Origin: Nemertoderma westbladi
Taxonomy: Eukaryota; Animalia; Xenacoelomorpha
Reading direction: 5' to 3'
Assembly (NCBI GenBank): GCA_032718475.1
Contig: JAUCBJ010002603.1
Span: forward strand, 1-49,003
DNA: 49,003 nt
Positions 1-35,027 of the stretch are shown in pieces. The first letter of the stretch is position 1. Each line of letters starts with the position of its first letter. Position numbers and translations under genes: made by a program. Under the pieces are notes generated by a model, which was given only the letters and a program-made list of their open reading frames with translations, searched no databases and was not told the origin of the DNA.

Positions 1-1461
1 GCAGTCAGTCAGTTTAGTCGTACAGATTTTTGAAAACCTTGTTAGAACCCATAGAACAATCGAGAATTTTCTCGATTGATTGCAGCACAAATTTGCTATA
101 TAAAGGTGCGATTTGTTCATTAGTTATTACAACCTACTTCACAGATTATCTTATCAATATTCTGTCGTGCTTAGTTTATTCTCAGATTACATTGTATTAT
201 AATTGTATCTTCTGTAATAAAGTCAGAATATTCTCTCAGCTTTTCTATCTGTTTTACCATGGATTCACTACGGTGAACAAACTCAGGGACAGGATGGCCG
301 GCTAGAGATCGGGCCGCAGCAATGAACGGGAACATCACGGGAATGTAGACGAGAGACAACCCGCAATACCATCTAGAGTTATTCGCCCATCGCCTGAAAG
401 GTTAGACAGCGTTCGATCCTTGCTACCTAAGTATAAGACCAAAAGATCAAAAGGTAGACGTAGTGACACGCTGTAAGCCCAAAATTACATCATAGGGACT
501 GTACTGTCTTGATTCAGGAAAACCCACAGTAGACCTTCACATTCCTACGGGAGGGAGAGAGCGCAGGCCGATACTAGTACGCAGATAAGACGTAGGCACA
601 CCGGTACAAGGCATACACATTGGTTAGGGTGCAGCAAACTGTACGCTTAACTCTTGCTAAGTACAGGTGCGTCTGTGACTATTTGCCGTGCAACGGTGTC
701 CATTACATCAGAACTTGTAGGCTAGGGGGGTTGCTGTGTTTTCACCTGAATTAGGATTGTACCGTTCAGGCGGTAGGGCAGTTTACGTACTAGGCGCAAA
801 TAAATTGAGGCTATCAGGGATATACTAACATCTACCGTGTCCCCGCCAACGCCCTAATAGGAAGTTACCCGGACTACCTGGGTGACTAAAATTCTAGATA
901 GGAGCCAGGATAGCTATTAGTACCCGTACGCCTACAGTAGTAAACTAACACATCTCTTCTTAGTATCAGGGACCTGGTACCTAAAATTGCCGAATTCTGG
1001 GCGTAGTATTAACCTTATGCCTGAATTTGAGGAAGGAGGAAAACTGTTTTTGACCGTTCAGAATTAACACACGCGCGTTAGAATTATTTACACCTCGAAA
1101 TATATAAAATTAACTTTGTCCGTACTGTGCTTTGCCCGCTAGTTAGACATCTCCAAATATCTGCCTGCACCTAGCTAGCGTCTCTTCGCCCAACCATATA
1201 AATCACACCGCGGCAAAGTATACGAGCCCCTTAGTCCGTCAGTGAGTCAGCCTGATTTTAGGATTCGCTGCGCGGGATTTTTGTTTTATCGAAGTTTGTC
1301 TGCTCGTAGACTGTTTTCTGCCTCACCGGTTATAAGAGATCGATACTGCAATATATTCGCTTGCTTAGAGTTTACTGTTTTGGTGAGAAGGTCGGATTTA
1401 TGATTTGATTTACAAACTTTACAGTAGGATATTGCAGGTATTGTTACCGTCTCTTCCAATA
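1..1461 (+). repeat. 5' LTR (left-truncated by the window edge)
   Basis: 33-1461 matches 14375-15916 apart from a 113-bp indel and one substitution that I could see; identity ends at ...CTCTTCCAATA. Contains TATA-like boxes (97, 1197) and AATAAA (216, 799). Inclusion of 1-32 is inferred. Confidence 0.88.
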
Positions 1462-1480
1462 GTAGGAATGTGTTTTACTG
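1462..1480 (+). other. Non-tRNA primer-binding site candidate (self-priming)
   Basis: GTAGGAATGTG (1462-1472) immediately follows the LTR and is the exact reverse complement of CACATTCCTAC (538-548); there is no TGG-led tRNA PBS at this position. Confidence 0.7.
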
Positions 1481-2062
1481 AACTACGGTTCGGTAGGACT
1501 AAAGTTATTTGAAAATTTTGTATTTTGAGGTAAAAATTCGTATTTGATTAGCTAAGTGCTAATTTTTTGAAATAAAATTTGATTTGAACCGCGTGTAAAA
1601 TATTTTTGGAATTGAATACCGGTGTTTAAAAGGGTTTAAATACCATATTGTACCGGTACAAAATTTTCGTAAAGTAAAACCTAACTCTTTTGTTTTTCAG
1701 GATTCAGAACTCATTTCTAGACTGTAACGGGAGCAAGACCGTGTTTAGCAAGTTTGGGAGATAGATAACCCAACAACTTTGGTTGGGAAAATCGCGTTTC
1801 GTCCGCAACGTTAAAAACGGAAAGGTTCACGTTCGGTTTGTATCTGGGAATCTGTTTTTCTGGAGAATTATTGGAGTGGGTGAGTTCGAAAAGTTGCATA
1901 AATAAGTTAGGCATTACCGTATTAGTTAAAATTATTGTGGGTTCCACTGTCTCAAGTATTTATGCATTCCGTACGATTTCTTTGTTCATTGCTGAATTAG
2001 TCCGTATTATTGTATTTAATTTACCTTTTGATAACGCATATCGTTATCCGATTTATTTGTTA

Positions 2063-2185
2063 TAAAATTGGCCGCTAGGCTAACTTTATTATATACTTAT
2101 TCCGTGACATTTATTTGCTGTAAAATTGGCCGTTTAGGCTAATTTTATCCATCTGCTATAAAATCGGCCGGTAGGCTAATTTTAT
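2063..2185 (+). repeat. Three imperfect copies of TAAAATTGGCCG..TAGGCTAATTTTAT in the 5' leader
   Basis: Copies near 2063, 2120 and 2159. Confidence 0.75.
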
Positions 2186-3285
2186 AAGACTGTAATTAGT
2201 ACCGTTTAGATATAAATACGGTAAAACTCGATACTTTGACACTCACTTTACTTGACTTACAACTACCGAAATGAGTGACAAACAAGACTATACAAAGAAT
2301 ACACCTACCGACTATGACTCGTGTGACGCGGATAAGTCAGCAGCGGAAGGACAACAGGGGAAGACTCGCGAGCCTACCGAACCTACACCGTGTGCGTCAC
2401 CAGTACATCCAACGGGAGTACCGGATGCCGTAGTACGAGGCGACGGCAGGACCGAGGACTTTCTAACTGTTCCGCAACCTAGATACAGGGAAACGGACAT
2501 GGTAAGTTCAGCAGGAAGCCAGGAAAGTGTGGTTAGAAGCGTCGGAGGTTACATGGCGCATATAACCAGGAGTATTGGAGAAGGTCATCGCATATTAGAC
2601 GAGTTGACCGCTCCGATGTCTCGATTCGAGTTCTACACCCTCCAGGTTAGAGTGCAAACTAGAGTACACAAGTCCGTAGATAACCTAGCTAATTGGTCTA
2701 CAAGATCTAGCTAGACAGAGACAGGACATGGACACTCAACTTAGAATCCTCGAGAAACTAATGATCGCTAGAGAGAAACTGATTCAGTTTAAGTCGACGA
2801 TTAGGCAGATACAACAGGAACAAGCAGACCAGTTGCTAGGTGAGTCAGTTTCGGACGAATTATTACAGCCCGAGGAAGAACAGGAACTGTACCGACTGGA
2901 TGGACAATTGAAACATCTGACGGACCACTTACGTATGTGCGGCGAGGATGTCGGAGATTGGGAAACCGTGCCGGAATATACGAGGGAAACTTCACCCGTA
3001 CGAATCGAATCGGCACCGGGAATACTGGACCAATCGTTAGTGAGTATTCGCAGCGAAATTGGCGAGATAAGTATAGTGACGTCAGAAATTTCCAGACAGC
3101 AACAACAAGTGGATAGACAACAACGGGAAGCGGAGGAACAAGCTCAACTGTTGACGGCACAAGCAGCGGTACAAGAAGAAAAACTACGCGTTGCGGATGT
3201 TGCAAGAATCTCTCATCTGCGAGAACAAGCCGAGTTGGAAGCGGCTGAGATGGAAAGGTTGGAGCTAGAAATAGCACAGCGAACA

Positions 3286-3384
3286 GCGGCAGCTGAGTTA
3301 GCGCAACAAGCGGCAGCAGCTGAGTTAGAACGACAAGCGGCAGCAGCTGAGTTAGAATGACAAGCGGCAGCAGCTGAGTTGGAA
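3286..3384 (+). repeat. 27-bp coding tandem repeat (AAAELERQA-like, 4 copies)
   Basis: Units of GCAGCTGAGTTAGAACGACAAGCGGCA; one unit has CGA changed to TGA. Confidence 0.9.
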
Positions 3385-4064
3385 GAACACAAGCGAGTTT
3401 CGGAAGCAAGAGCTGAAATGAAAAAACGGCAAATAAAGGCTCAATCAGCGATAAGACAAGCGGAGCTCGAAGCGCAACAACGACAGACGGAACAACGCGA
3501 GAAGGAAGTTAAACTTCATTTCGAACTCGGGAAGAAGGCGAGAGAATTAGCCAACGCGAAGGAAGATCTGGATCTACAAGCCCGCGATCGATCGATGAGA
3601 TCTCGAGACGGACACGATCTAGACCAGTTAGAGGTAAGACACCGCCAAATTCAGGAACGGAAGAAGGAAGGAAGCGTAGGAGCACCCGGACGGGAACGAC
3701 AATTAGTAAAGGACTTGTGTCAACGATTCCCACAGGTAACTCATATGTTTGCACCGGTTACGACTAAGGAACCTGTTTCGATTGCTGGTAGTAGTAATAT
3801 TTCTCCTATCCATGGTGCGACGGAACACAGGTTTGTTATTCCGGACAAGTTTACACCGCCAAGAGCAACGTCGTCGCCTATTCCGAAAGTCAAGGTAAGT
3901 AACCCACCGATTACAGATCGTAGTAGTTTATTAGTCGAACCTGTACTACTGACGACGAAACAGGTGAGTCCACCGTCGACACCTAAACCCGTTACACACT
4001 ACGCTTACCCAATGACGTTTAGGCCAACAAGGCCAGTTGTTTCAAATGCTGTCATTCGCCCACC

Positions 4065-4213
4065 GATCAACCAGTTTACATCGCAATCTACGACTTCGAG
4101 GAAGACTTGTGAGCCTACCGAACAACGGACACTAGTGGATACGCGACTGATCAACCAGTTTACATCGCAATCTACGACTTCGAGGAAGACTTGTGAGCCT
4201 ACCGAACAACGGA
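4065..4213 (+). repeat. 84-bp-period coding duplication (INQFTSQSTTSRKTCEPTEQR, 2 copies)
   Basis: About 65 identical nt at 4065 and 4149. Confidence 0.92.
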
Positions 4214-7200
4214 GATCAGTGGACGATGTTCCGAAACGGAATGTTAGAATTCGAACGACGCAACGAACGCGAGCACGTCGACCACCATATCCAGATGATA
4301 GTAGTACTTCGAGCGAATCGGATTACCCGAAACGCGAAGTATTTAGAACAGGGGCGGCCGATGGATATAAACGCGAGCGTTCAGACAACTCCTTTGTAGA
4401 TAATCCTCCACAGAATACACCAACACAAAAGGCGTTACAACCAACAGACGCGATCAGTACCCAACAGTTCGCCGACATCATGCGACCAGTTGTCAACAAG
4501 TTGGCTCAGATCGAGGAGCGTCTGGAGGAAGTTCAAACCGATAGTTCGAGGAACACCGAATTCGAACACAATAGACACCCGAAGGAACCACAAAGACCGG
4601 TACCTTCAAACCCCACATCGTATCAGGGAAAAGCGCCAAGAAGGGAGAACATCAACCAGACTACCAACCAAGGACGCGAAACTCTGAACGTTGCAGAGGA
4701 GATAGCGAAATTCGCAGCCAGACAGGGATTGCCGGTACAACAACCACCGAAGTTCTCCGGTAGCTCAAAACACTGGCATACCTTCGTAGACTATATCGAA
4801 TCCCAGATCGCCGTGTGCGCCTTTACATCACGGGAGAAGTTCAATTACCTGCTCCAAACGTTGTCAGGAGAACCTAAACGTTTGGCAGAGACCTTCGTTG
4901 GTGTACCGGACGCTTTCGAACTAGCGTACGATCGTTTAACTTCGATATACGGAGGTACAGTGAGCATGGCCAGGTCAGTAATAGAGGAACTCTGTAAGGG
5001 AGGGGCTATCACTAAACCCGTCGACTTACTAAAACTAGCTGACGAGATCAAGAACGCTATCACTACCTTAAGATCAATTGGACAACTTGATTACGGGAAT
5101 ACCCCTACAGTCCTATTAAAGATCATAGGACGACTCCACCATCGACTTCGTCGGGAGTGGAGAAAGGTCGAATACCAGCGAGAGGAGCGAGGAGGATTCC
5201 TAAAATTAGAAGATGTGTACATTTTAATATCCAGGGAGGCGGTAGTAGAAACTCGATCTAACTACACCGACCAGCACATCGTGGCAGAAGGGATCACATT
5301 GCCATCCTCCAACCGACAAAAACCCCAGACAACATCCACTAAGACGGCCACTTACACCACACCGACGGAATTACGACAATTCTCGGACGGAGGTAGGGTA
5401 TCTGCGCCCATTGGGACAAAACAAACGAGACAGCAACTTGGTACCGACTTCAGTGGCTGCCAATACTGCGAGCATCTAGGTAAGCGGTATATCGGCCACA
5501 AGTTACGAGGTTGTCGACAATTTCGCGAGTTGAACTCGGAAGAACGACGGCTGCAAATACGGCCACTGGACTCTTGTTGGCAGTGTACGCGACACGGACA
5601 CGTGCGTAAGGATTGCCCAAATACTGACACTTGTCCATCCTGTGGACGCAACCACGACGGTCTGCTCCACACAGACAGCCACACGCCGACGAAACGCTTC
5701 GCCAGGGAACACCCGGAAGCAGCAGCGAGATGTGATGCGGCCTATAGAAAACGAGAATCAAAAACGACTCCAACCTTCGTGACCCATATTGAGGATTGCT
5801 TCTCAGAACAATCCGGATCGTCGGACGAAGAATCAGAAGACGACGACGAATATTCTAATGGAGACGAACAACCGTCGATCGCGCTTCTGACCACTGATCA
5901 ACTGAAGGGATTCAGTGTAATCCCGATTAAGGTTACTGGCACAAAGGGGAGCAAGAGGATCTATGCGATTCTAGATTCAGCCTCATCTCATAGCTACGTG
6001 GACGAAAAGATAGCTGACGTCGTGACGGATCTAAAACAAGGTAAGCACGTCAGTTATACAGTAAGTAGTATGCACGGACAGCGTGCAATACCAGTGACGC
6101 GAGTTAAGTTGGACTTAGACTCTCTTCTTCCAAAATCGCAACACAGCGAGAGGGAGAGGTCTTTGTTGCCCTTTAGAGATCTAACCTTTGCGGCCACGAA
6201 GGACTTTAGTAACCTACTAGGTCCAGTGCCGGAACAATCTCTAGAGGACCGTAAGTATTTCAGACACCTTGGTGTACCCGAATGTCCTGTCAATTATAGA
6301 TCGGTAGCAATGCTGATCGGGACGGACCAATTCAACCTACATCAGGTGTGGGAAACCAGACCATCGGCAGTTGTAGCGGGAAACGCATACGCCTGCAGAA
6401 CGCCGATAGGGTGGTATACTCGAGCGCCTGTGCGCACACTAGACGTAAGTGACGAGGAAGACGATGTACAGAGTACATGTAGTTTATTAACTACAAATTC
6501 AATTCATTCCTTTTCACACGACGTGAACCATACTACACTACAGTCGACAAAACATGACAGACGTGTAACTAGTATGATAAGTCACAAGGAGCAGCTAACC
6601 CACAAGGTGAGTTTAGAACTTGGGGGGAAGACGAGTCAGCTAGAGATTCCATCGACGACAGATGATAGGCTTGCGAGTCTACCTACCCCAATAACCTCAA
6701 CAGTGCCCGTCGATATCGATGATGACGCGTTGAGAAATCATCAGTTGGAACAAGCCACCTTGGACAAAGAATTAACGGAGAAGACTATCAGGTGGTTAGA
6801 ACAAGATACAGCTGAACCTGGTAGCTATGAACCTTGTATGTCGGAACAGGAGAAACAATCTCTGAAGATCATGGAAGATACTATCCACCAGACGAAAGAC
6901 GGACATTATGAGGTAGGGATGTTATGGCGTAGCCAAAGTCCTAAACTTATAAACAACTATCCACTGGCTTTAAGACGTCTACACTCAATCCGACAACGTC
7001 TATTAAAAGACGAGAAAGCCCATCTGCAGTATAACACTCAGATGGAGACGTATTTGACAAAGGGATACGCTATCCGAATGACTAACCCGGAGCGAGTGAC
7101 CGACCAAACGTATTACTTGCCACATCACTACGTGAGACACCCCGACAAACCAGACAAAGTACGTGTAGTCAATGACTGTGCGGCTCTGTTTGAGGGAATG

Positions 7201-10200
7201 TCCCTCAATAGTGAGTTGATGGATGGACCGAACATGAATAATTATCTTATGGGGGTGATTATGCGCTTCCGTCAGCGTCAAGTAGCTTTTACTTGTGACG
7301 TTGAAGCGATGTTTCACCAAGTAAAAGCGTTAGAGCGAGACAGAGACAGTTTGCGGTTCCTCTGGTACCCGGAAGGAGATTTAAGTCTACCACCGGCGAC
7401 TTACCAAATGCAAGTTCGCGTTTTCGGTGCCAGAGACAGCCCAAATTGTACGATGTACGCCCTAAAGCAGGCCGCTAGGGATCAGAAACATCTATATGAC
7501 CCAGAGATAATTAGAATTGTGGAGCGTGACTTTTACGTTGATGACGGATTACAGAGTTGCGACACAGTAGAACGTGCTACAACAGTAGCACATCAATTAC
7601 GGGACTGCTTGGCGGGCGGAGGTTTTAACCTCACCAAATTCGCCTCAAACAGTGCCGAATTAGTAGACTCATTCGGAACTACTGAGCGTGGAGGTGGTGA
7701 CATAGACCTAGAGTTCGAACCACTACCGACGACTAAGGTGTTGGGGCTCTTTTGGGACCCAAACACAGACAACTTTCGAGTGAAGGTGAGACTGGACAGT
7801 CAAGGGAACACACTGACAAAGAGATCATGCTTGTCAAAATTGAGCCGATTGTTCGATCCGTTAGGATTCATCAGTCCAGTGATACTGCAAGCCCGCATTT
7901 ATATGCGCAGTATATGGAAGGATGGACTAACATGGGACGAGCCGATCTCATCAGACCAAGTGGACTTATGGAAGACCTGGGAGGCGGAATTATCTTCGCT
8001 AGAGGATTATTCCATACCCAGGGTTTACTTTCCATTACAAAGTACATTTCCTGACAACTTGGAACTACACTGTTTTTCTGACGCCAGTGACAACGGTTTT
8101 GGTGTGGCAGCGTACTTGCGCAGACAAGTAGAATCAGACGAGTTCGATGTTTCGCTCATTACTTCTAAGGCTAAGACCATGCCTACTAAGTATATGACGA
8201 CACCACGAGCCGAGCTACAAGCCGCAACCCTGTCAACCACCATCGTGAACCTCATACAGACAGAACTACAGTCGAGTTTACAGATATTTTATTGGACTGA
8301 CGCGACGTTGGTTTTATTTTACATAAACAACGACACACTCGAATTCAAGACATTCGTAGCTAACCGTCGCGCGGAAATTCTAGACCGTTCAATAAAAGAG
8401 GATTGGCGACATTGTCCCGGACCACAAAACCCAGCTGATATTGCGTCGCGAGGAATGATGCCTGAGGAATTCTGTAAACCGGAGAACAAAGAATTTTGGC
8501 AACACGGACCCCAATTCTTGCAGAAATCGACACAAGATTGGCCTCCGTTATACGACAACAAGTCCAACACCATTCCCAAGGACGCCGAAATCAAGAAACC
8601 AAAAAAGGGAAAGACAAAGAAAAGGACGACGGCGGTAAAACTCAAGAAAAAACCGAAGGCGAAATGGAAAGATATAACTTCAAAGGTCAAGAGAGGAAGA
8701 CTTGCGAGCCTTTCTACACCAGACATATCGCCAGACGGTCAACCAGACATGTTACTAGACAGCCAACCAGACATTTTGCCAGACATATCACAAAATGTCC
8801 CACCAGACGCTAGTAACACACTGACAAACAGTAAAGCCGCAGTTTCCCTATTGGAGCGGCCTTGTATTGACAAACTACCAATTTTGACACACTTGAGCAA
8901 CCATAAGCACGGTGAAACCTCATGTATTACAGATGTGGGTAGTACCTACGCTAATGTAAATACAGGTGTTACTCTGCGCTCAAGAGACATACCGAACTTG
9001 CAACCTATGGTGAGACCTGGGATTAATGTCGGCAGAAAAATAAGTTTACCGAAACCTGCTGACCCCATAGAGTTCAAACCACCATTAACGATCGACTTAC
9101 AAAGTACTGACGATCAAGGTAAGAAGACAAAGAAGGACAAATTACTTGTAGACCCGGACGGATCAACAGTCAACAAGGGAATACTTACCGGCGGACCCGT
9201 GGGCCCTTCTAGTAATTCAAAACCTTCCAAAATCTCCATTGACTTACCTGATGACGTCACAAATACTTACGTCGACCGTATTGTAAACCTAACAGAATCT
9301 TGGACAAACGCTTGCCGAAAATTAGCGTGGATTGTACGTTTTGTACAATACGTTAAAGGCAAACGCGACTTTACACGTCGACTTACATTGACTGAGATTG
9401 ACAGGTGTGAGATTAAATTAATTCGCCATTATCAACTGCGATATTTCGCGCGCGAATTCACATCTATAAATCAAGGTCAACCAATCAAGTCGTCACCAAT
9501 ACTGAGTTGGAGTCCGATAATTTATAATGGCTTAATTTGTCATAAATCTCGGCTTCAAAACATTGACTTTAACACGAACTTTAGGTACCCAATAATAATA
9601 CCGCAACACCACGAACTACAACGTGCAATGATACTGGACGCACATCTACATCTGAAACACGCTGGAAGACACCACTGTCTTTCCTACTTACGTACTAGAT
9701 TTGTATTAATTAGACCCAGTAAAGCATTAAGTTCAGTGACACGTACGTGTATTATTTGTAAAAAGGTACATTCTAGAATAGGTACCCAAGAAATGAGTGA
9801 ACTACCACAAGCACGACTTCAAGCATTCAGACCACCTTTTACAGAGACTGGAATTGATTGCTTTGGTCCCATACATACGAAACGTGGACGTATACTAGTA
9901 AAACGCTGGGGACTGATTTTCACATGTATGTCCAGTAGGGCAGTTCACATTGAACGTGTGATGGATCTTTCCACCAACGCGTTTATACTAGCACTGCGGC
10001 GATTTATCGCTAGACGCGGACTAGTAAAATGCTTGTACTCAGACCAAGGGACAAACTTTGTTGGTGCTCGGAATGAGATTGCTAGAGCCTTTAAGAAATT
10101 AGATCATGATCAAATCTCGAACGAACTACAACCTCACAAGATTGTTTGGAAGTTCAATCCTCCAGATAGTCCTTGGAGAGGCGGAGTCTGGGAGAGATTG

Positions 10201-11487
10201 ATTAGATCTATAAAGACAGCCATGGCAAAGGTCATTCCAGTAAACCACATATTAACAGACGACCAACTGACAACATTGTTTGTTGAAATCGAGGCAATAC
10301 TAAATACTAGACCAATAGTATTAGTACCCGATGACAAACAATCCCAGTTTGCTTTAACACCGGCACACCTGCTTATGCAGGCACCGACGACATTGACACC
10401 TATTTCTATTCCAATAGAAAGCGACAGTTACGGTAGAAAAGCGTGGAAAATCACGCAACTACTGGCTAACAAATTCTGGGAAATATGGCAAAACCATTAT
10501 TTGCCCTCTATTTCTGCCAGAACAACTTGGTATAATAACACCCGCGCATTAAAGCCGGGAGATCACGTGCTGTTGGCAGAAGTGAATCTAAAAAGACGCT
10601 TCTGGATAACAGGTGTCATTTTAGCCACACATCCATCTATGGATGGAGTGACAAGAACTGTGACGGTACGGACAATTGACGGTCGAACAGTAGACAGACC
10701 GACTCAACGTCTCGTACTTCTTGAAGAGACTCGTAACGAGTCTGGAGACTACAAATCTCCACCTAATACTAGTAAATAATTAGGAGTTTACAAATAGATT
10801 TCCACGTACCTGTACACCGTAGTAAGGACAGCGGTAGAATTCCATTGTCTTTATATGTGAACATTGAGGGTGGTACCCTTACGTGTCACATAGGAGCGGG
10901 ATTTGTAGGTATAAGAAATGGAATTCTACTTGGAACTCACAATATTGAGACATTTTCGAAATTTTAGACAATCCATTTGGATTTGAAAAATTTTTAAAAA
11001 ATTTTCTCCAGTGAATAGATTTCAGGGTACAGTCGGGTGGAACTTAAAATTAGAAGAAACAAGAGAGGAAGACTTGCGAGCCTTTCTTAAAAAATTTTTT
11101 AATTAAATTTTACACGGTCTTGTTTCAATAAGTTACGTCAAAATAGACTCCCCTATATTTATTTACTAATTCTTGACTGCTTATTTTCTGATAATAGTTT
11201 GGGATCAAAAAGTGAGTATTTTAGACTCACAGCCAGTTTAGCCCAAATTCGTTTTTATTTCGGCAAAAATTTTAGATAAGAAGCAGCGTGTCATTAAAGA
11301 AACCTTAGATCTTAGGCTATGGGTAGGAGGTTAGAGCGTTGTCGAAGCCCAAAAGGCAGACGAAACTCTCACGTCTCCTCACAACTAACCACAAACTCTG
11401 TTGTATTCCCTCTAGTAGTAATGATTATGTAACTACACCTCTAATTATGGAGAAAGGGATACAAGGAGAGCCGAGATGGGGATATGA

Positions 11488-13149
11488 TATCCAAGAGGAA
11501 GCGGCAGCTTCATTCGAACGATTTGGAGCAAAGGACTACACTATATTTGGTATAAAGGAATTATCAGAAAGTACAGCGAAGCTCGCAAAGACAGCAATGC
11601 CTTTACTCGAGCAGGATTTAGTATATTTCGAGACGTGTATCTTCGCTGTGCGGGATCTCTTATCGAAAGACCATCTATGTTTACATTGTTACCCTATGAA
11701 GGAGAACGTATCGTGGAGATTATGGATGAATCACGGCAGACGCGCGCGCCTATCGGTCACCTTGGTGATGAATTCGAAGTAACTACTACGATCGCCGACG
11801 ATCCTTTAGAGGAACTTCTTGAGATAGAAAGGAACCTCCCGAAGAAATCTCAGACGGAGATTCGACAACTTGAAGCAACAGATGCTATAGTTTGTATACA
11901 ACCTTCAGAAACCTACCAACCCATAGACCCAGATGATTACGATTATAGTATGGGAGGAAGCGCTCGACCGATTGGAGATCTTATATACGAACGAGTGTGG
12001 TACCCTGCCAATACGATGTGTAGTAAATGTGGCGTCGCTGGACATCATATGGCAAAGTGCAGTGGAAAGCACATTACTACGACTCAGCTAATCTGTGGAT
12101 GGTGTGGGGATCAAGGGTCTCATACCTTTTATACTTGCTGGAGATTTATGGCCCAATGTACTTATTGCAATATAAAGGGACATCGAGCATCTGAATGCCA
12201 ACTAAGAGACATACCTTATGAACACGAATCTGTAAAACTCGTGAGGAAGTTATTTGATGAGTGGGAAGATTTAGCCGACGAACATGTATCGGCACAAAGA
12301 AGACGGTTTCCGATGAGAGCGCATCTCGGATTTTGGGCGGTAAATCCTCAGACGATGATGTCGGAAGGATATATCTCCGCTATGCCCCAATATGACGAAC
12401 TTATCGAGGTTGTCGATATTTTGCCCCACGACAGCGGATTCCGAGTGGTGCGCGAGTATCTGTTACAAATTCACCCGGATAACAAAAACACGTGGAATTT
12501 TCAGAAAGTCGTTAATCGGATTACGTATGGTGAATTCGATCGTTTCCGAACTGAAAAGCGGAACAAGGGAGCTTGGTTAACCGTCGCATGGGCGTACCGA
12601 GCCGCGTTTTACCATAAACGTATACGAGCGAGCGTATTCGAGGAAGAGGAGGTCCTAGAGGCGACGAATATACCAGCCACTCCGGTTGCGCCGTCTGCAC
12701 GTCACCCTCGGGAGGACGGGCAGGGTAGGATCATACGGGTCCAGAAAGTGGGCCAACAGTTAAAGAAAATTATTAATGTAGAAGAACGCAAGGGAGTTGA
12801 GCCGACTATTCGAGTTACTCGGGATACGGTATCACTTCCAAGAGAACCAGTAGGAGGATCGGGACATACACCAGCTGATCAACAGGGGGCGCAAGCTACT
12901 CTTGGGTCTGCGTCGTCCACTTCTCGCGTGTTCCCAGACGTTTTACCAACTGTAGTGACAACTGATCGGTCACGAGGAATCGGTCGAGGTTTTGGGATGC
13001 CAAATAGACGAATTTGCGAGGAAATAGTCGCACCGTCTCTCAACGTCCCAAGTAAACCAGTGACTCGCCCCATTAGTCCCATATCGCGAGCAAAGTCACC
13101 TGTGCGCAGTTTTCGAGGACGCGGCAGGGCTCGATCAACTAAGCGATAA
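11488..13149 (+). CDS. Accessory ORF of the BEL element: triple CCHC zinc-knuckle protein with RG-rich tail (start uncertain)
   Basis: Frame is open from 11488 with first ATG at 11677; an overlapping ORF starts at ATG 11447 in another frame. Knuckles CSKCGVAGHHMAKC, CGWCGDQGSHTFYTC, CTYCNIKGHRASEC at 12019-12198; C-terminal RGIGRG and RGRGRAR. Confidence 0.85.
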   Translation, partial: YPRGSGSFIRTIWSKGLHYIWYKGIIRKYSEARKDSNAFTRAGFSIFRDVYLRCAGSLIERPSMFTLLPYEGERIVEIMDESRQTRAPIGHLGDEFEVTTTIADDPLEELLEIERNLPKKSQTEIRQLEATDAIVCIQPSETYQPIDPDDYDYSMGGSARPIGDLIYERVWYPANTMCSKCGVAGHHMAKCSGKHITTTQLICGWCGDQGSHTFYTCWRFMAQCTYCNIKGHRASECQLRDIPYEHESVKLVRKLFDEWEDLADEHVSAQRRRFPMRAHLGFWAVNPQTMMSEGYISAMPQYDELIEVVDILPHDSGFRVVREYLLQIHPDNKNTWNFQKVVNRITYGEFDRFRTEKRNKGAWLTVAWAYRAAFYHKRIRASVFEEEEVLEATNIPATPVAPSARHPREDGQGRIIRVQKVGQQLKKIINVEERKGVEPTIRVTRDTVSLPREPVGGSGHTPADQQGAQATLGSASSTSRVFPDVLPTVVTTDRSRGIGRGFGMPNRRICEEIVAPSLNVPSKPVTRPISPISRAKSPVRSFRGRGRARSTKR

Positions 13150-13267
13150 AAGGGAGGGCAAGGGTGGACGGAAGACTCGTGGGCCTTTCTTATGATTTTG
13201 TGATTTATTTTGAATTATATGTTTTATGTTTAGAAAATTTAGTAAAACTTATATTTTATATTTGTGC

Positions 13268-13800
13268 TTATTCCGAACTTATGCAATTTGTATTGTTCCG
13301 AATTTATGAAATTTAGAGAGTTTATATTTAGAAGGAACTTATATTTGAAAGATTTATGTTTCATATTTGAAGATGCAAAGGAGTTTATATTATTCTAAAC
13401 TTATGCAGTTTATATCTATATTTAGTAAGACTTATATTTGTAAGAATTTATATTTTATATTTGTGATTATTCCGAACTTATGCAATTTATATTATTCCGA
13501 ACTTATGCAATTTATATTGTTCCGAATATTATGCAATTTATATTTTATAAGCAGTATTTGTATTTACAGTGAAATAGAAAGTTTATAGATAGAAAATTTT
13601 GTGCTCAGAAAGACTCATATTTGTAATTATTCCAAACTTATGCAATCTACATTTAGGTACGAAAGTATTTGTAATTACTTGAATTTATGCAATATTTGAG
13701 ATGCAATAGTAGATGGAAGACTCGCGAGCCTTTCTTATTGTTTTCATTTATTTGTATTTGTAATTGTTTGAATTTATGCAATATTGAAATGCAATAGATT
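13268..13800 (+). repeat. Array of about 25-bp AT-rich units with core (TTCCG)AACTTATGCAAT
   Basis: About nine imperfect copies, e.g. near 13270, 13295, 13392, 13469, 13494, 13519, 13629, 13680 and 13770. Confidence 0.8.
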
Positions 13801-13901
13801 TATATTGGTGAATTTAATTTAGATTTATATTGTACTTACTTAGTAAAGCCTTAAATACGTAAAGTTTGAATTTGTAATTATTTTGTATCGAATCATTACG
13901 T

Positions 13902-13911
13902 AGAAAGGAAG
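13902..13911 (+). other. Polypurine tract candidate AGAAAGGAAG (alternative: 13148-13164 AAAAGGGAGGGCAAGGG)
   Basis: Directly followed by TATTG, the inverted complement of the LTR end CAATA. Confidence 0.5.
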
Positions 13912-15916
13912 TATTGTTTGAAATTTAATTGTAAATATGTAAGTACGCCCTAAGTATTCTATAGTTTGATTGATTATTGGTGAAAACCGTATATTTTATG
14001 CACGATAATATCCTGTTTTCATGGAGCGGTATAGAATTATATTCCCTAAATGCCGTGGATTTTCAAAATTTTATTTTATTCGAATTAACTTTGTAAAGAT
14101 TGCTTTGAGTTCTCATTAGTATTGGTTCTATCTATTGTACATCTATCGGTCAAGTGGTTCAGTAGCTCAGTTGGTAGAGCGTTGGAAATTATATGTGTAG
14201 TAGGTATTGAGTTCGAATCCTAGTAAGTGCGTATTATTTTTTGTGCAGAATTTCAACTCATTTAAATTAACCGCTACAAATTAATTGCATTTGTCTGTAC
14301 CAATGAGACTGTAGTTATTTGATTGTAACCAATGTCGTGCAAGTTATATATTAGCTGGACCAATAGCTATCTTTAAAACCTTGTTAGAACCCATAGAACA
14401 ATCGAGAATTTTCTCGATTGATTGCAGCACAAATTTGCTATATAAAGGTGCGATTTGTTCATTAGTTATTACAACCTACTTCACAGATTATCTTATCAAT
14501 ATTCTGTCGTGCTTAGTTTATTCTCAGATTACATTGTATTATAATTGTATCTTCTGTAATAAAGTCAGAATATTCTCTCAGCTTTTCTATCTGTTTTACC
14601 ATGGATTCACTACGGTGAACAAACTCAGGGACAGGATGGCCGGCTAGAGATCGGGCCGCAGCAATGAACGGGAACATCACGGGAATGTAGACGAGAGACA
14701 ACCCGCAATACCATCTAGAGTTATTCGCCCATCGCCTGAAAGGTTAGACAGCGTTCGATCCTTGCTACCTAAGTATAAGACCAAAAGATCAAAAGGTAGA
14801 CGTAGTGACACGCTGTAAGCCCAAAATTACATCATAGGGACTGTACTGTCTTGATTCAGGAAAACCCACAGTAGACCTTCACATTCCTACGGGAGGGAGA
14901 GAGCGCAGGCCGATACTAGTACGCAGATAAGACGTAGGCACACCGGTACAAGGCATACACATTGGTTAGGGTGCAGCAAACTGTACGCTTAACTCTTGCT
15001 AAGTACAGGTGCGTCTGTGACTATTTGCCGTGCAACGGTGTCCATTACATCAGAACTTGTAGGCTAGGGGGGTTGCTGTGTTTTCACCTGAATTAGGATT
15101 GTACCGTTCAGGCGGTAGGGCAGTTTACGTACTAGGCGCAAATAAATTGAGGCTATCAGGGATATACTAACATCTACCGTGTCCCCGCCAACGCCCTAAT
15201 AGGAAGTTACCCGGACTACCTGGGTGACTAAAATTCTAGATAGGAGCCAGGATAGCTATTAGTACCCGTACGCCTACAGTAGTAAACTAACACATCTCTT
15301 CTTAGTATCAGGGACCTGGTACCTAAAATTGCCGAATTCTGGGCGTAGTATTAACCTTATGCCTGAATTTGAGTCCTGGAAATACGCAAGAGGGGAAGGA
15401 ACCTTATCATTCGTGAGTATTGGACCTACAAGTTATAAAATTAGAATATTCGTAAAATGCACACCGTACCCAGTAATTATATATGTGAAGGAGCAAAACT
15501 GTTTTTGACCGTTCAGAATTAACACACGCGCGTTAGAATTATTTACACCTCGAAATATATAAAATTAACTTTGTCCGTACTGTGCTTTGCCCGCTAGTTA
15601 GACATCTCCAAATATCTGCCTGCACCTAGCTAGCGTCTCTTCGCCCAACCATATAAATCACACCGCGGCAAAGTATACGAGCCCCTTAGTCCGTCAGTGA
15701 GTCAGCCTGATTTTAGGATTCGCTGCGCGGGATTTTTGTTTTATCGAAGTTTGTCTGCTCGTAGACTGTTTTCTGCCTCACCGGTTATAAGAGATCGATA
15801 CTGCAATATATTCGCTTGCTTAGAGTTTACTGTTTTGGTGAGAAGGTCGGATTTATGATTTGATTTACAAACTTTACAGTAGGATATTGCAGGTATTGTT
15901 ACCGTCTCTTCCAATA
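13912..15916 (+). repeat. 3' LTR (start inferred; demonstrable identity 14375-15916)
   Basis: Direct repeat of 33-1461 with an extra 113 bp at 15374-15486. Start inferred from the PPT and TATTG...CAATA termini. Confidence 0.8.
14156..14242 (+). promoter_or_regulatory. tRNA-derived Pol III cassette (A box, B box, T6 terminator); not a functional tRNA
   Basis: TAGCTCAGTTGGTAGAGC (14163-14180, intact D arm), GAGTTCGAATCC (14209-14220), TTTTTT (14237-14242). Acceptor and anticodon stems do not pair. Confidence 0.75.
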
Positions 15917-16686
15917 ATTATCTTATTTTTCTTTTTCCGCAAGGAAAAAAAATCAATACTCTTATGGATTACTTTTTTCATTTTCATTATTCATTTCCTC
16001 ACGATTTTGGGGTATAAAAGTTTTTAAAAATGTTCTGGAAAAATAGTTTTTTCAACTGTTGACAGCAACTTGTTGGTGGACTCCTTCACACACAGAAAGT
16101 TTTGTTGCGAATTGTTTCTGAGTGTATCAAATCAACATATTGTTGACCCCCTTGCAAGGAGCAATTTTAGTTGCAGAAAAAAATTGCAGAAACGAAAGTT
16201 GCTCCGCGTGAGGAAAACCTGAAATAATATTAAAATTATATTATATCTTCAGTGTGTATTATAATGATAATGATAATATTTGGAATGTCGCGGTGCGATA
16301 TAATGTTGGGAAATATCGGGCGATTTGGTAGTGCGAAATTAATTCCCTACAAAATAAATAATATAAATTTTAAATTAGTATTATTATTTTATTTTATATT
16401 TTTATGTGGAATTGATATGATAATATTAAATTTCCCATTGATGTTTGTTTCAGAATTATAATAGTTGCACATTTTGATTAGATAGCAACTTTTAACTTTG
16501 TTTGTTTTCATAAAAAATTATACTTAAATGATGCTCGGTTTTAGTAAAAAAATAAAATGTTATTCTCAAATTGCTACTTTTTCGCCCGTGTCTACCTCAA
16601 AATCAAGATGAAAAGGGAGTAGAAAAGAAAATGTAACACATATTATAGCATTGATTTTACTCTTTTCGGAGTAATAATAACTAATT

Positions 16687-16824: not shown

Positions 16825-16858
16825 GTTGTTTTACTGATTACTTAACAAGATGTATATA

Positions 16859-17730
16859 CACCATGAACCGTAATATAGTGTCATTTTCTGATGACACGGA
16901 CCCCCCCCCCCCCCCCCAGATTTTTCTACAAATCTTTATCATATTGCTTAAAATTTGAAACATAAACTCGTTCCACTCACCGTCGATAACCCAATGAAGC
17001 CGGAATTTTCGATTTTGACTTCCGTATCGTGGACATACTTCACATTAGTCGTAATTTTTTCATATCAATAGAAAGCTTGAGTTGCAAGGATTCGAAATAT
17101 GTAACAATATCTGAATTTCGTTGAGAAACAACTGAGATACAGGAGTTCAAAGATTGCAAGAAGTATTGTTCGCTGCAGGCCATTTATTCTATTAAATAAA
17201 TACACAAAATTCTAGAATGTGTTATTTATTTTATAAGTTGGTTGGCAACAGCGGTATTCCTCTATACAATATATCTATTGTGTAGCTATTCATTCTTAAA
17301 CAAATTGTTCCAGAACATCGTGTATTTATTAAATAGGAATAAATGGCCTCCCGCGAACGATAATTCTTGCAATCTTTGAACTCCTATATCTCAGTTGTTT
17401 CTCAACGAAATTCAGATATTGTTACATATTTGTAATCCTTGCAACGCAAGCTTTTTAATGATATTACTTATAATTAATTACGAATAATGTGAAGAATGAC
17501 CACGATACGGAGGGTGCGATTTCGCAAAAGATACTTAAATACGCTTATAAAAAAATTTAAAGTCAAAAATCGAAAACTCCGGCTTCATAGTAACAACGAC
17601 GGTGAGTTCAACTAGTTATGTTTCAAATTTTAAGCAATATGATAAAGATTTGTAGAAAAATCTGGGGGGGGGGGGGGGGGGGGGGGGTCCGTGTCATCAG
17701 AAAATGGACACTATATTACGGGACATGATG
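16859..17730. mobile_element. Palindromic MITE with TA target duplication (Tc1/mariner-type)
   Basis: Inverted arms of about 360 bp including poly-C/poly-G tracts; TA at 16857-16858 and 17731-17732. Confidence 0.85.
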
Positions 17731-17740
17731 TATGTAGGAC

Positions 17741-20700
17741 ATGTATTCTTTTTGCCTCATTGAAACATCTGTAGCTGAAACGCACTACAACCTCCTTCAA
17801 CTATATCCCAATACTTCAACAAACGATTCATTCCCGGTCGCGCTTATTAAGTTGGTTGCGGAGCCATTAGCGCGTCACTTAACGTACTTAATAAACTTAG
17901 CTGTTACTACAGGTGAATTCCCTGCTAGTTTGAAGATGTCTAAGGTTATTGCAAGCTACAAAGGGGGTGACCCTCTTGATGCCAATAACTACCGGCCCAT
18001 ATCCATTTTGCCTGTGTTCACAAAATTGTACGAAAAAATAATCTACGACCAGCTTATTTCTTACCTGGATCACTTTTCAATTCTCACCAAATGCCAGTTT
18101 GGATTTCGAAAGAAAGTTTCAACTTACTGCGCTATTTTAATTGTGACTGAGAAAATTCGTACTTTTCTTGATTCGAAAGAAACCAGCTGCGCGATATACA
18201 TTGACCTGAAAAAGGCGTTTGATGCGCAGGACCACAGTATATTAATTAAAAAACTCAAAAATTATGGTATTCGTGGAACTCCTAATGCGTTAATAAAAAG
18301 CTTTCTAACCGAACGTAAGCAGGTCGTAGTGATAAATGATTACAATTTCTGACCCACTATCTTTAACCCTATTAGTACCGGGCTATAAAATGTTGTACAA
18401 ATACCGGGGGGGGGGGGGGGTCATATTGACCCCCCCCCCCCCCCCCCTCTAAAATCTACAAATATTTACGAAAACGTCTGATTTTTTGTTTGTACGTAGG
18501 TATCACTTGTCTGGATCCGACCGAAAAAAAAAATTTTCGAAAAAATGTACTGGGGTGGTTATATTGCAGCACCAAAATTACAAGTAGTGCACAATTTTCA
18601 CAAAATTTGAAAGTTACATTTTCGGCTAATTATTTTTCAATACAGGTTTTTTGGGGTGCATAATACATTGGAAAATATTTAAAAATGATATGATTACTAT
18701 AAATGGCTGTTTAGTCCTCTCTGCGTAGGAAAAAAATGAAAAAAACAAGTAACCAGCACTTTTCAGTTAGAACTCAAAATTTTTAATTCACTTATACGAT
18801 GCTATAAATTTACATTTTCAGGTTTTCGAGGGCGCTGATTCTAATGTAATACATTTCTAATATGCCAGATCATTGCTACTTGTATTTTTCGGCGTAATTT
18901 GGCAAATTTTGGTGCTAGCACCAAATTTCGTACCCATCACCAAAAAGTACAAGTTTGCGATGTCCAGTGCTGTTTTTATTGATTCCATCGGATTCAGGAC
19001 CCTCATAAACCCGTATAACGCAAGAAACAAGGTGATACTATCTACTTATCAATTTGCATATTTTCCAAAATTTGGTGCTGGCACAACAATTTTCACCCAC
19101 CGGCGAAAAATACAAGTTTGAGAACTCTTATGAAATTTTTACTGATTCCATTGAATTCAGAACCATCACAAACCCGTATAACGCAAGAAACAAGGTGACA
19201 CAATCAATTGATATATTTGATGGTTTTCAAAATTTGGTGCTAGCACCACATTTTGCACCCACATCCGAAAAATACAAGTTTGAGATGTCTAGTTCGATAA
19301 TTATATTTTCCATTGAATTCAGAACAGCCATAAACCTCTAAAACGCAAGAAATAAATTGTCACAAGCAATTTTATATATTGAATGGATTTTCAAAATTTC
19401 GTGCTAGCACCAAAATTTGCACACAGCACCGAAAAATACAAGTTTGATACGCTTGGTGCAACTTCGTATATATTTCATCGAATCCAGAACCCCAAAAAAC
19501 CCCAATTGCGTAAAAAACAAGTTTCAAACAATCAATTTACAAAATTGACTTATTTCAAAATTTGGTGCTGGCACCAAAATTTGGCACCCATCGAAAAAAA
19601 CAAGTTTGAAATTTCTAAATCAATTTATATGAATTCCATCCAATTTCTAACACCAAAAAACCGGTGTAAATCAAAAATAGAGATGTTACAATTCATATTT
19701 AATGAAATGTAATTTTCAAAAAACGTCTCAAAAAAAGTGCCAAAAGTAGGGTTAAAAAATGGTGCTATAACTCGAAAAGTACCCAATATTTTTGAAAACG
19801 GTTTTCACTACCATGAAGACAATAGATTTTTAGGAAAAGTCATAAAATTTCAGATTCCCAACTGCGTTTGTTTCAGAATTATAATAAAAAAACCACGGGG
19901 GGGGGTCATATTGACCCCCCCCCCCCCCGGGTTTAATAGGGTTAAAATGTGGTACTGTACAAGGATCCGTGTTATCTCCGTTATTATTTTTACTATATAT
20001 AAATGACCTGCCGTTAGTATCCAAATTTATGACAACCCTTTTTGCAGATGACACCACCTTGCTGCATAACGATTCCAATATTGAATTATTAATTGAATCT
20101 TCAAATAGTGAACTCAAAAAAATATATGAATGGCTGGCCGACAATCGACTGTCTCTGAACTTAAAAAAAACCGAGTACTCAATTTTTACGAACAAAAATT
20201 ATTTCCTAGATGGCCTACCCAAAGTTAAAATTAAAGACAATATTATAAAGAAAGTAGAGTGTACAAAGTTTTTAGGTGTCTGGATAGATGATAAGCTTAA
20301 CTGGAAAATACACATTGGGCATATTTTAAAGAAAATTAGTAAAAGCACTGGGATATTTTATAAATTACGACATATTTTTCCGACAGACATACTTCGTACA
20401 CTTTACTTCACACTGATCCATCCATACTTAACATATGGAATTTTGGCTTGGGGTTCGGCATGTAAGAGCGATTTAATGAAAATTAAAACCAAAACTAATA
20501 AAATTATCCGTGCTATCACTTTTAGCCATTTCCGCCAAACAGCTTATCCCCTATATAAAACAATGAATATACTACCTTTGGAGTCACTACCGGTATATGT
20601 CTATCATGTTTCCCAACTATTGCTAGACATATCACATAACCCCTCACACCCTCTCTCGCACCTTTTTACAAAATGTTCTGCCATGCACCGATATAGTACC

Positions 20701-21396
20701 CGTGCGGCTTTGACAGGAAAATATGTTATTCCCCTAACCCGTTTAGAAGTAGCTCACAAATCGATCGGAGTAATAGGACCGACTATCTGGAATGATCTCC
20801 CAACTGACATTAGAGCAATAAAATCAAAAGCCATATTTTTAAAGCACCTTAAGAAATATTTACTCGATAAACTCTGATTAAGTTTTTTTGCTTATGAATC
20901 ACTCAAGTTAATACATGTAGTAACTACAAATCTATTTTATTAAACAAATACAGCACTCCCATATCTGTTTACTTTCATTAACCAGGTGGAAATTATTAAG
21001 CTTTAACAAATGTATATGAATATATAAATTACTCTAGATACAAATTATATTCTACAATAAAAACTACTACAAAGCAGAGTATTACGCATATATGGTAAAT
21101 TTTCATAATATATTCTTAACTTATATGTCTTAGAATAATTGTGCAATTTATTTCTTTGTGATACACTTTGCCCTCTTTGTACAACAGATGACCTTGACTA
21201 GCATTACGCTACTGCCAGCTGTTGTACGACAAATTATTTAGCATAAAGGTGCAGCGCAACCAAACATATGTATGTAGTAGGCCTACAAACGTAGTGTATA
21301 ATTATAATATGAAAGCTCTGTTTTGGTGGTGGCTGCAGGTTTATGCCGTTATATGTATTGAATCTTATATTATAATAATAAATTGAATTGAATTGT
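17741..21396 (+). mobile_element. 5'-truncated CR1/L2-group LINE, split by a piggyBac-type insertion
   Basis: NYRPISIL, QFGFR, DLKKAFD in 17741-18352. After removing the insert it reads LSLKCGTVQGSVLSPLLFLLYINDL..LFADDT (to 20877). 3' end AATAAA followed by (TTGAA)n. Confidence 0.92.
18367..19941. mobile_element. Non-autonomous piggyBac element
   Basis: TTAA on both sides (18363-18366, 19942-19945); CCCTATTA...TAATAGGG termini; subterminal Gn-TCATATTGA-Cn palindromes; internal tandem units of about 164 bp; excision restores the LINE RT sequence. Confidence 0.93.
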
Positions 21397-24582: not shown

Positions 24583-24692
24583 ATAAATTGATAAATAAAA
24601 ATCAATAATTGATCAATCAATCAATAAATTTTGCTCAAAAATGTTTTTTTACTTGAAATTCAAATTCTACATAAAAATTTAAGTCAGAATAT

Positions 24693-26163
24693 GTGGCTGG
24701 TTGCGAGAAAAGGGACCTGGGGAAAAAATTTTCATTCTGAGAAAAACGCGTTTAAAGTTTGGCTCTTAAAATCGACTGTTTTCATTGGTTTATTGGTCGT
24801 TATTGGGGTGTTTGCATTGGTTTATTGGTCGTTATTGGGGTGTTTGCATTGGTTTATTGGTCGTTATTGGGTTTTATTAGAGCGAAATTCAAACTGAATT
24901 ATTTTAATAATAGTACTAAGTACTGTATACACTTGTTTTTTTAGATTATCGTAGAATATCTGTAGCCTATTCGGTTAGTAATTGTACAAACAAGTTAATA
25001 CACTAATAATTTAGAATTTATTATGGAAACTGAAGCAGAGTGGCTGAACCTATTAAATAATAGGGTTTTCAGGTCGCTGATCACGATAAAACTTGTTAAA
25101 ATATTTTTTGAAAAAGCAACCATAATTTTTTGTGGTATTTGGGTCCCCCAGTATGAAAAGTACAAGTAAAAAAATCTCAAAATAAAAAAATTTGTGTTTG
25201 ATTTGCTAATGCTGAACGTACGTGTTTTCGAGGTCGCTGATTACGATGAAATTAGTTATAAATATTCCTAGTAATGCAAACCCAATTTTGGTGCTATTCT
25301 AGTGCCCCAGAACGAAAATTACAAGTTGCACAAACTTATAAACTGTCAAATTATGCCTTTGGTTTGGTAATGCTGCTTCTATACTGGTTTTCAAGGTAGC
25401 TGATCACGATACAACACGTTACAAATCATTCGTGGTAACGCAACTGTCAATTTTGGTGCTTGTCTGGTGGGACGAAAATTACAAGTAGCAAACATTTCAA
25501 ATTGCAAAAAGCGAATTTGGTTGGATAATACGATATTTTTTAGTGTCATATTCGTGATCAGTGTCCCAGAACACCCATAATGTCCAAAATTCAGGTTGAT
25601 TTGGTAATGATTTTTGGTTATCAAACTTTTGCTACTTGTATTTTTCGTGCCGCACATTGACACATATCGAAAAAATTGTTTTAATTCGTGATCAGCATTC
25701 CAAAAAAACCATATGTTCATAAAATCAATTAAATTTTGTGGTGATTTTTCATTATCATATTTGCACTACGATTTTTTTCGTGCCCCATGGACCGCATTAA
25801 AATTACCAAAAATTTTCTAGAATGTTATATTTGAGTTCAATATTTGTGATCATTGTCCAAAAAAAAACGCTATAGCGCAAATATATTAATCTTAGTGAAT
25901 TATAAAAACATTTGAAAATTTTAGCACGAAAAATACCTGAGATGGATGCCAGAAATGGACCACATCAAAAAATTAACATTGGTTGCGAGAAAAGGGACCT
26001 GCGTTTTTAATTTTTTGTTTAAACACTCATAACTTTTTAACGAAAAGCGATATGAAAAAACTAGTTCGATATTCGGAAAGCCCACAAAATTCTGCATCTA
26101 ATAGGCCTAAAAACGCAAATTCGACCATGTGGTCCCCAGGTCCCTTTTCTCGCAACCAGCCAC
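24693..26163. mobile_element. Non-autonomous TIR element with ATAT flanks (Sola1-like; superfamily tentative)
   Basis: 31-bp TIR GTGGCTGGTTGCGAGAAAAGGGACCTGGGGA; ATAT on both sides; partial internal TIR copy at 25980. Confidence 0.75.
24783..24872 (+). repeat. 32-bp tandem repeat, about 3 copies (CATTGGTTTATTGGTCGTTATTGGGGTGTTTG)
   Basis: Directly visible in the sequence. Confidence 0.92.
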
Positions 26164-34840: not shown

Positions 34841-35027
34841 TATCTGGTATAGGCCTAATTTCAATATCCGCTCAGGCCATATACATTATTTATAAATTAA
34901 CACAAAATTAATAATTTCGGTAGGCTAAATCAAAATGTAAAAGGTGAAGAATATTAATAAATAAATACAGTAACAAGTTCTCCTAAACAATTACGCATAC
35001 TTCGATGATGACGCTTGATGGAACATA

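Follow-up and report, generated by a model that had tools for sequence, protein, structure and literature searches.

The nucleocapsid (NC) protein of HIV-1 (human immunodeficiency virus type 1) binds the guanines at loop positions 2 and 4 of GGAG and GGUG tetraloops (PMC7599994, in part), and the NC protein of Rous sarcoma virus (RSV) binds a UGCG tetraloop (PMC5035970, in part). Single-stranded RNA viruses and hepatitis B virus carry many dispersed, individually weak stem-loops that share a loop motif (PMC6281560, in part). [quoted passage not shown] No description of a BEL/Pao packaging or export signal, or of a repeated hairpin, was found in the literature searched, most subscription papers being beyond reach. 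The locus considered here lies in Nemertoderma westbladi, on contig JAUCBJ010002603.1 of assembly GCA_032718475.1, and was analysed as one stretch of 49,003 nucleotides (nt), the window, of which positions 30-15913 are a BEL/Pao-type LTR retroelement. This element carries ten copies of a 20-nt motif that can pair with itself around a YGYG loop (Y, pyrimidine). Taken together, the analysis points to a real, lineage-specific, structure-keeping repeat, larger than first described, for which a docking role is plausible.

An earlier note on this DNA had reported seven copies of the motif, all on the sense strand and none outside the element. These seven match GGAAGACTYGYGRGCCT exactly on the plus strand, starting at 2359, 4100, 4184, 8695, 11067, 13170 and 13715 (Table 1); in 100 dinucleotide shuffles the chance expectation at up to two mismatches is 0.02 matches on average and 1 at most. 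The set proved incomplete. When the scan was by sequence only and tolerated as many as 4 mismatches in the 20 positions, three divergent plus-strand copies came to light that had been missed, at 6664, 9190 and 11735. A covariance model built from the ten copies scores them, by construction, at 28.8-35.9 bits, and the next independent match in the 49 kb at 14.8 bits. A structural descriptor, written after the ten copies had been seen, picks out 10 sites within the element, none elsewhere in the window (33 kb) and 2 in 584 kb of related elements; on the shuffled internal region 5 of 500 shuffles give one match and none gives more. Outside the element the descriptor is empty, as the note had it, but one match with two mismatches does occur there (22008-22024, minus strand); two of its stem pairs are broken, and it is absent from the covariance-model list at E values up to 10. 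Sense orientation likewise stands for nine copies and is uncertain for 6664-6683, which has 2 mismatches on the minus strand against 4 on the plus strand. That copy may be a sense copy whose A·C has turned into G·U or an inverted copy with two changes, parsimony favouring the inversion.

Several copies share more than the motif. Those at 4100 and 4184 are units of one 84-nt tandem duplication, those at 13170 and 13715 lie within a 53-nt duplication at 79% identity, and the reported identity of 8688-8715 and 11060-11087 over 28 nt is confirmed, with a further flank match of 29 nt at 86%. Apart from these stretches of shared copying, the flanks outside the motif core are unrelated. Six of the ten copies lie in gag-pol frames and one more in an extra open reading frame (ORF) that follows pol. 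The coding copies occupy two frames (offset 1 for 2359, 4100 and 4184, offset 0 for 8695) and others are non-coding, in agreement with the earlier note; the use of two frames therefore argues for constraint on nucleotides. A repeat at the peptide level was considered and is rejected, given two frames and non-coding copies.

No copy falls in any conserved domain or in the leader before gag (1459-2270), and the three pol copies sit in alignment columns with an occupancy of 0.0 among 40 homologues. None of the coding copies falls in a part of the proteins to which a homologue can be aligned. The linker between RNase H and integrase is 382 residues long, against at most 245 in homologues with both anchors found, and the copies at 8695 and 9190 lie near opposite ends of its insertion. 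Once the tandem pair is collapsed, the gaps between copies measure 495-2564 nt. The in-frame Pol linker insertions at 8611-9211 and 6511-6800 are absent from the 40 homologues, and the former contains a lysine-rich stretch and a 24-nt tandem repeat. About 40 nt before the copy at 6664, a G6 purine tract is followed by an AAGAC half motif (6621-6632); this is a possible internal polypurine tract.

Across the ten copies 8 of the 20 motif positions are invariant. Pair 8-13 is found as U-A, U-G, C-G and G-C and pair 4-17 as A-U and G-C, and all three divergent copies retain pairs 4-17, 5-16, 7-14 and 8-13. The covariation score of 0.247 is equalled by 5 of 500 shuffles and exceeds all six slid controls, with the caveat of the tool that related sequences can pass such shuffles. 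When exact copies are mutated in simulation to the observed distance of the divergent copies, three or more double-sided changes in two copies (the ambiguous 6664 excluded) arise with a probability of 0.9-2.2e-4 in 100,000 random-substitution trials, and the retention of all four pairs in three copies with one of 0.012-0.021. Of the 20 cases at loop positions 1 and 3, 11 are C and 9 are T. Loop positions 2 and 4, read on the plus strand, hold G in 20 of 20, the placement of guanines known from the NC tetraloops. The element is not CpG-depleted (observed/expected 1.14), so the freedom between C and T beside a fixed G is not a methylation bias. CpG deamination as the source of the loop variation is rejected on this ratio and on the occurrence of 9 TG and 0 CA. 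An external RNA partner, such as a tRNA, is rejected as well: on inspection the deduced partner misfits the tRNA 3' end, and in the divergent copies the covariation is between positions of the copy itself. What can be taken as firm is that the motif complements itself around a YGYG centre, not any particular fold.

We tentatively read the ten copies as a docking signal on the sense RNA, for Gag or for the three-knuckle protein of the extra ORF. On the whole of the analysis this explanation ranks first, with packaging as by dispersed signals (PMC6281560, in part) or export as by CERV (PMC10309623, in part) as candidate outcomes, and it is quite possible, if short of probable. In the sense genomic RNA each copy would form a small and weak stem-loop, and the zinc knuckles of Gag or of the extra-ORF protein would grip its two fixed loop guanines; binding would stabilise a hairpin that is marginal alone. 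They would have spread by short-patch copying, as the flanks shared between neighbours suggest, and been retained where the polyprotein tolerates insertions. The RNA of about 14 kb would thereby carry one site per 0.5-2.6 kb, and many weak sites may let the protein select, coat, compact or export the RNA of the element. The proposal that a zinc-knuckle protein is the ligand keeps its candidate standing, the loop fitting the N-G-N-G pattern to which retroviral zinc knuckles bind and Gag and the extra ORF having three knuckle-like motifs each. The UGCG loop of RSV is also the loop of three copies here. The broader proposal of a repeated RNA signal draws support from frame independence, double-sided changes and invariant loop guanines, and is weakened by the marginal sense hairpin, the stabler antisense one and a possibly inverted copy.

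A number of results weigh against docking on the sense RNA. Judged by their sequences, the ten copies are related by duplication and are not independent events. The count of doubly changed pairs, 3, is reached by 79 of 500 shuffles, the retention of a YGYG loop in 2-3 divergent copies has a simulated probability of 0.11-0.27 and is not significant alone, and the copy at 11735, a run of GC, could be a product of slippage. The sense hairpin is weak, at -0.4 to -4.2 kcal/mol under an energy model that omits protonated A·C pairs and protein binding, and so lacks a stable stem. With 40-nt flanks the inner pair probability exceeds 0.5 in 1 of 10 copies, and RNAalifold gives -1.15 kcal/mol. The antisense hairpin is the more stable in 8 of 10 copies with the structure imposed and in 9 of 10 by best fold. 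An alternative register with a 4-nt bulge scores equally (1 of 500 shuffles), so that the structure is pinned down only for the two loop-closing pairs; this shifted register dominates at 8695 and 11067. The earlier claim that all copies fold alike accordingly holds for the pairs that are possible, but of nine folded 42-mers only those at 13715 and 6664 have this as their best structure. Even spacing of the copies is not significant (P 0.06). In RSV itself the UGCG loop is dispensable for Gag specificity in vitro, and a GC-to-UU change in the loop is without effect on packaging (PMC5035970, in part).

The comparison with relatives also tells against it. The set comprises 79 loci (78 metagenomic, 1 viral) from 62 distinct families, 584 kb in all, in which Pol identity does not exceed 44%. 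None of them has the motif: there are three matches at 4 mismatches and none closer, the best covariance-model score is 14.5 bits, and 0 of 240 related proteins carry the motif-encoded peptides. Absence from relatives, which the earlier note had offered as grounds for giving up the idea, is thus what the 79 loci show, though these are too distant for a fair test of motif conservation. Dispersed 18-mers at up to three mismatches number 7 in the element and at most 3 in each of the 62 relatives, in a comparison that used no more than 12 kb of each locus and in which many loci lack their ends. A search for same-loop hairpin arrays of at least four found none in the relatives, a weak test, since the array of the element itself was also missed. 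On these sequences the array is specific to this lineage and is not routine for BEL elements. Rfam gives 0 matches at E values up to 1 over positions 1-16500, ARAGORN gives none, and IMG/VR has 0 matches for the 20-mer; a 17-mer finds 11 single-copy matches in IMG/VR, none with BEL homology, which are read as chance. Three 16-mers have 0 matches in 2.0 million characters from the supplements of PMC3118150, which hold a small part of its 7,861 elements.

The foremost alternative is that the copies are functionless by-products of short-patch copying, through template switching or slippage, perhaps seeded at the junction of purine tract and U3 and surviving where harmless. The shared flanks of neighbours (the 28-nt identity, the 29 nt at 86%, the 53 nt at 79% and the 84-nt tandem) are what such copying would leave, two copies lie at candidate left ends of the LTR, the coding copies sit in lineage-specific insertions, and the motif is found in no relative. 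Against this, the similarity ends sharply at the core with unrelated flanks beyond, both core differences within the 13170/13715 duplication hit tolerated positions, and the divergent copies retain pairing. The contrast in dispersed 18-mers further indicates that the array is no routine product of BEL replication, and we consider the explanation unlikely.

Second, and unlikely too, the copies could be palindromic sites of RNA-RNA pairing, weak hairpins that open into duplexes of 14-20 bp and zip two genomic RNAs in register or compact one, a role compatible with protein binding. A YGYG loop pairs with any YGYG through G·U, and this accounts for loop positions 1 and 3 being pyrimidines in 20 of 20 cases, a restriction not needed for knuckle binding. 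In 8 of 10 copies sense self-dimers reach -15 to -24 kcal/mol, within the top 0.2-6% of 20-mers of the element, against -0.4 to -4 for the hairpins, and every copy pairs best with the one at 6664 (-20 to -30). Yet the two TGTG copies are no better at dimerising than 40% of 20-mers, the element has unrelated palindromes that are stronger (to -28), in 6 of 10 copies it is the antisense dimer that is stronger, and the A·C mismatch is retained in 9 of 10.

Third, with rather poor prospects, the motif could be a dyad site in the double-stranded proviral DNA, recognised by a host factor or by the extra-ORF protein and serving as an enhancer, an insulator or a VANC-like anti-silencing mark. Two copies do lie in the putative U3, the motif is a quasi-palindrome, one copy is best read inverted, and interchange of TpG and CpG occurs for some zinc fingers. 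Zinc knuckles typically bind single strands, however, and double-sided changes would not be required in a DNA site; nine of the ten copies share orientation and asymmetry. The VANC motifs are family-specific, share an orientation and have spread by duplication (PMC5735166, in part), and the likeness to the VANC/VANDAL system extends to a motif multiplied within the element, mostly in one orientation, beside an extra gene. VANDAL is a DNA transposon, and its non-palindromic motif of 8-9 nt forms dense, non-coding tandem arrays bound as duplex DNA, whereas the motif here has 20 nt and is sparse and largely within ORFs, with 6 of 10 copies in gag-pol and gaps mostly of 0.5-2.6 kb.

A hairpin on the minus strand, in first-strand DNA or antisense RNA, acting as a signal for pausing, for transfer or for internal priming of the plus strand, is improbable. 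In its favour, A·C becomes G·U or G·T there, the RNA hairpin is stabler for 8-9 of the ten copies, five copies have a purine run of 8-12 nt that ends in their 5' arm, and 13170 adjoins the purine tract. With DNA energies, however, the hairpins have only -0.4 to -1.7 kcal/mol, and two of the ten copies have none; G·U at 6664 and U-G at 13170 pair on the sense strand only, and the purine runs measure 3-6 nt in the other five copies.

Table 1. Motif copies and other features of the element, in window positions
Feature	Positions	Strand	Remarks
Motif copy 1	2359..2378	+	exact, loop CGCG; gag N-terminal frame
Motif copy 2	4100..4119	+	exact, loop TGTG; low-complexity gag, first unit of 84-nt tandem duplication
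Motif copy 3	4184..4203	+	exact, loop TGTG; second unit of 84-nt tandem duplication
Motif copy 4	6664..6683	.	divergent; protease-RT linker insertion absent from 40 homologues; sense with A·C to G·U, or inverted
Motif copy 5	8695..8714	+	exact, loop TGCG; near start of RNase H-integrase linker insertion of about 200 residues
Motif copy 6	9190..9209	+	divergent, loop CGTG; two pairs changed on both sides; near end of RNase H-integrase insertion
Motif copy 7	11067..11086	+	exact; in non-coding DNA separating pol from extra ORF; shares 28 identical nt with copy 5
Motif copy 8	11735..11754	+	divergent, loop CGCG; loop-closing U-A to G-C; 5' part of extra ORF
Motif copy 9	13170..13189	+	exact, U-G closing pair; 5 nt past purine tract, at putative 3' LTR start
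Motif copy 10	13715..13734	+	exact; putative U3; with preceding T forms TGGAAGA, 7-nt inverted repeat of LTR right end
Gag-pol, BEL/Pao type	2271..10779	+	DUF1759, knuckle-like motifs, Peptidase_A17, integrase zinc finger, DUF5641
Extra ORF	11447..13149	+	three CCHC-like knuckles 12019-12198; 5' part in another frame
5' LTR	30..1458	+	5' side truncated, without 113 nt of 3' LTR; 99.8-99.9% identical to 3' copy
Putative polypurine tract	13148..13164	+	16 of 17 purines, then TG
Putative 3' LTR (TGGA...TCCA)	13165..15913	+	alternative left end 13714
Primer-site position	1462..1472	+	without a tRNA-type TGG site; 538-548 is its exact reverse complement
Candidate self-primer LTR segment	538..560	+	11 bp with 1462-1472, 8 bp with U5 end 1450-1457

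The proteins of the element are those of BEL/Pao. The long frame at 3361-10779 encodes DUF1759, Peptidase_A17, an integrase zinc finger and DUF5641, the profile matches are PF05380 (2e-42), PF03564 and PF18701, and the Gag-Pol domains are of Pao type in the order protease, reverse transcriptase (RT), RNase H, integrase. The three knuckle-like motifs of Gag lie at 5458-5680. These domains, together with the purine tract, make up its likeness to Belpaoviridae. The closest Pol homologues are all BEL/Pao polyproteins, at most 44% identical and mostly from aquatic animals where named, and in a midpoint-rooted tree of 34 rows (the element, 12 loci and 21 named proteins) the element forms a long branch without close kin. 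Gag-pol is interrupted by a frame change near 2690-2715 and by a stop at 3358-3360.

The element is flanked by LTRs, direct repeats at 30-1461 and 14372-15916 with 99.8-99.9% identity, and is therefore a young insertion. The purine tract followed by TG suggests a 3' LTR that starts at 13165 and a truncated 5' LTR; at 13714, the alternative left end, 7 nt repeat the LTR right end in inverted form. The array is known from this one element copy with its broken gag-pol, and the left LTR boundary is one that we infer. According to the ICTV profile, BEL/Pao elements measure 4.2-10 kb and their LTRs 0.2-1.2 kb (PMC8742986); this element, at about 16 kb or more with LTRs of 2.2-2.7 kb, exceeds both. 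Survey maxima for the group are 22.8 kb for an element and 2.4 kb for an LTR. Inside the putative U3, at 14163-14220, lie two tRNA-like boxes, A and B, spaced 35 nt apart. ARAGORN and Rfam call nothing at this site, and the pair could be an RNA polymerase III promoter or a TFIIIC site in the LTR. AT-rich repeats of 25-37 nt lie at 13237-13800, between the two U3 copies of the motif.

The lack of a tRNA-type primer site sets the element apart from BEL/Pao as described, as does a knuckle ORF at a possible env position. The ICTV profile gives tRNA priming from an 18-nt site complementary to the 3' end of a host tRNA (PMC8742986). No TGG lies within 8 nt of the LTR end, either in the element or in any of the 12 relatives whose LTR end was placed (L001, L009, L017, L021, L026, L041, L048, L049, L064, L066, L073 and L078), and the element is therefore called BEL/Pao-type by its proteins. 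The primer-site position is instead complementary to the element's own LTR, as in Tf1. This self-pairing of 11 + 8 bp has -29.7 kcal/mol, against a best of -21.3 among 14,127 control windows; the 11-mer alone has P 0.04 under wobble scoring. Among the 12 relatives, 5 have a direct LTR complement to the primer site of 9-12 nt (control fractions 0-0.013), 6 have one of 11-15 nt across a GTAAG...AG intron in the LTR (0 of 200 controls each) and 1 has neither. Self-priming is accordingly a candidate feature of this BEL/Pao clade. It has been described for Tf1 and Tj1 (PMC4600332, in part) and is mentioned for chromoviruses (PMC3601003, in part). No paper title on self-priming in BEL was found in the literature searched, and a term look-up in PMC554778 and PMC3118150 finds no mention of priming. 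In Tf1-type self-priming the pairing segment forms the RNA's 5' end and is cleaved off as the primer. In the LTR here, a TATA-like box occupies 97-104, and AATAAA occurs at 216 and at 798. The TATA-like box points to an RNA start well upstream of 538, and AATAAA at 216, which lies upstream of this candidate segment, is at odds with a simple layout of the Tf1 kind unless the one at 798 is used.

The extra ORF has a probable frame change near 11690-11710. It occupies the position of env and has a basic, low-complexity tail. No homologue was found among 5.8 billion proteins, and among 1.84 billion proteins there were 2 generic knuckle matches only; the best Atlas match (0.87) is to fungal DUF8363/CCHC clusters, under the lead threshold, and PDB yields nothing. 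A structure model from the single sequence has a predicted local distance difference test (pLDDT) value of 38. Beyond the element, the window contains elements with long terminal inverted repeats, of miniature inverted-repeat (MITE) or foldback type, at 16853-17736, 24689-26167, 26399-27373 and 39244-39726, and tandem arrays of 160-163-nt units at 18897-19611 and 25063-25424. Four RVT_1 fragments, an amidase ORF and a transposase GTP-binding-domain fragment occupy 17738-18352, 19915-20877, 28772-30238, 36657-37511, 33284-34885 and 48058-48714.

If docking on the sense RNA is correct, a cis-signal has spread into protein linkers and lengthened the polyprotein by hundreds of residues. A wider scenario, doubtful as a whole, is that this BEL/Pao lineage evolved a recognition pair of its own, a three-knuckle accessory protein and a 20-nt guanine-presenting stem-loop, the latter copied into linkers and LTR as a distributed packaging or export code that would tile an oversized, self-primed RNA and may zip two genomes. 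Since the motif is defined at 20 nt, has natural variants and comes with two candidate ligands, how the element recognises its RNA can be put to the test.

Set beside known systems, the array would work as retroviral NC tetraloops do, multiplied and scattered as a code, and differs from them in stem stability and in position. Cer1, a gypsy-type element of C. elegans that is grouped here with Rev-type export systems, encodes CERV, an extra protein with a candidate zinc-binding RNA site (PMC10309623, in part). The likeness is that of an LTR element with an additional protein for which its own genomic RNA is a possible target; the available part of PMC10309623 names no RNA target for CERV, and the extra ORF here, with its CCHC-like knuckles, matched no CERV-like protein. 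With HIV-1 SL3 (GGAG) and SL2 (GGUG) and with RSV SL-C (UGCG) the motif shares a four-base loop, guanines at positions 2 and 4 and CCHC knuckles encoded by the element itself. The retroviral tetraloops are single, distinct hairpins with stable stems that cluster in the 5' leader, whereas the element repeats one sequence tenfold, with a marginal stem, across ORFs, spacers and U3 and has none in its leader. Dispersed packaging signals present a sparse loop motif on otherwise different stems, and the capsid protein that binds them thereby promotes assembly. The element departs from them in carrying near-identical 17-20-mers within polyprotein insertions of an LTR retrotransposon, and resembles them in having many weak sites with a shared loop motif along the genome, sense-strand folding being the candidate form here.

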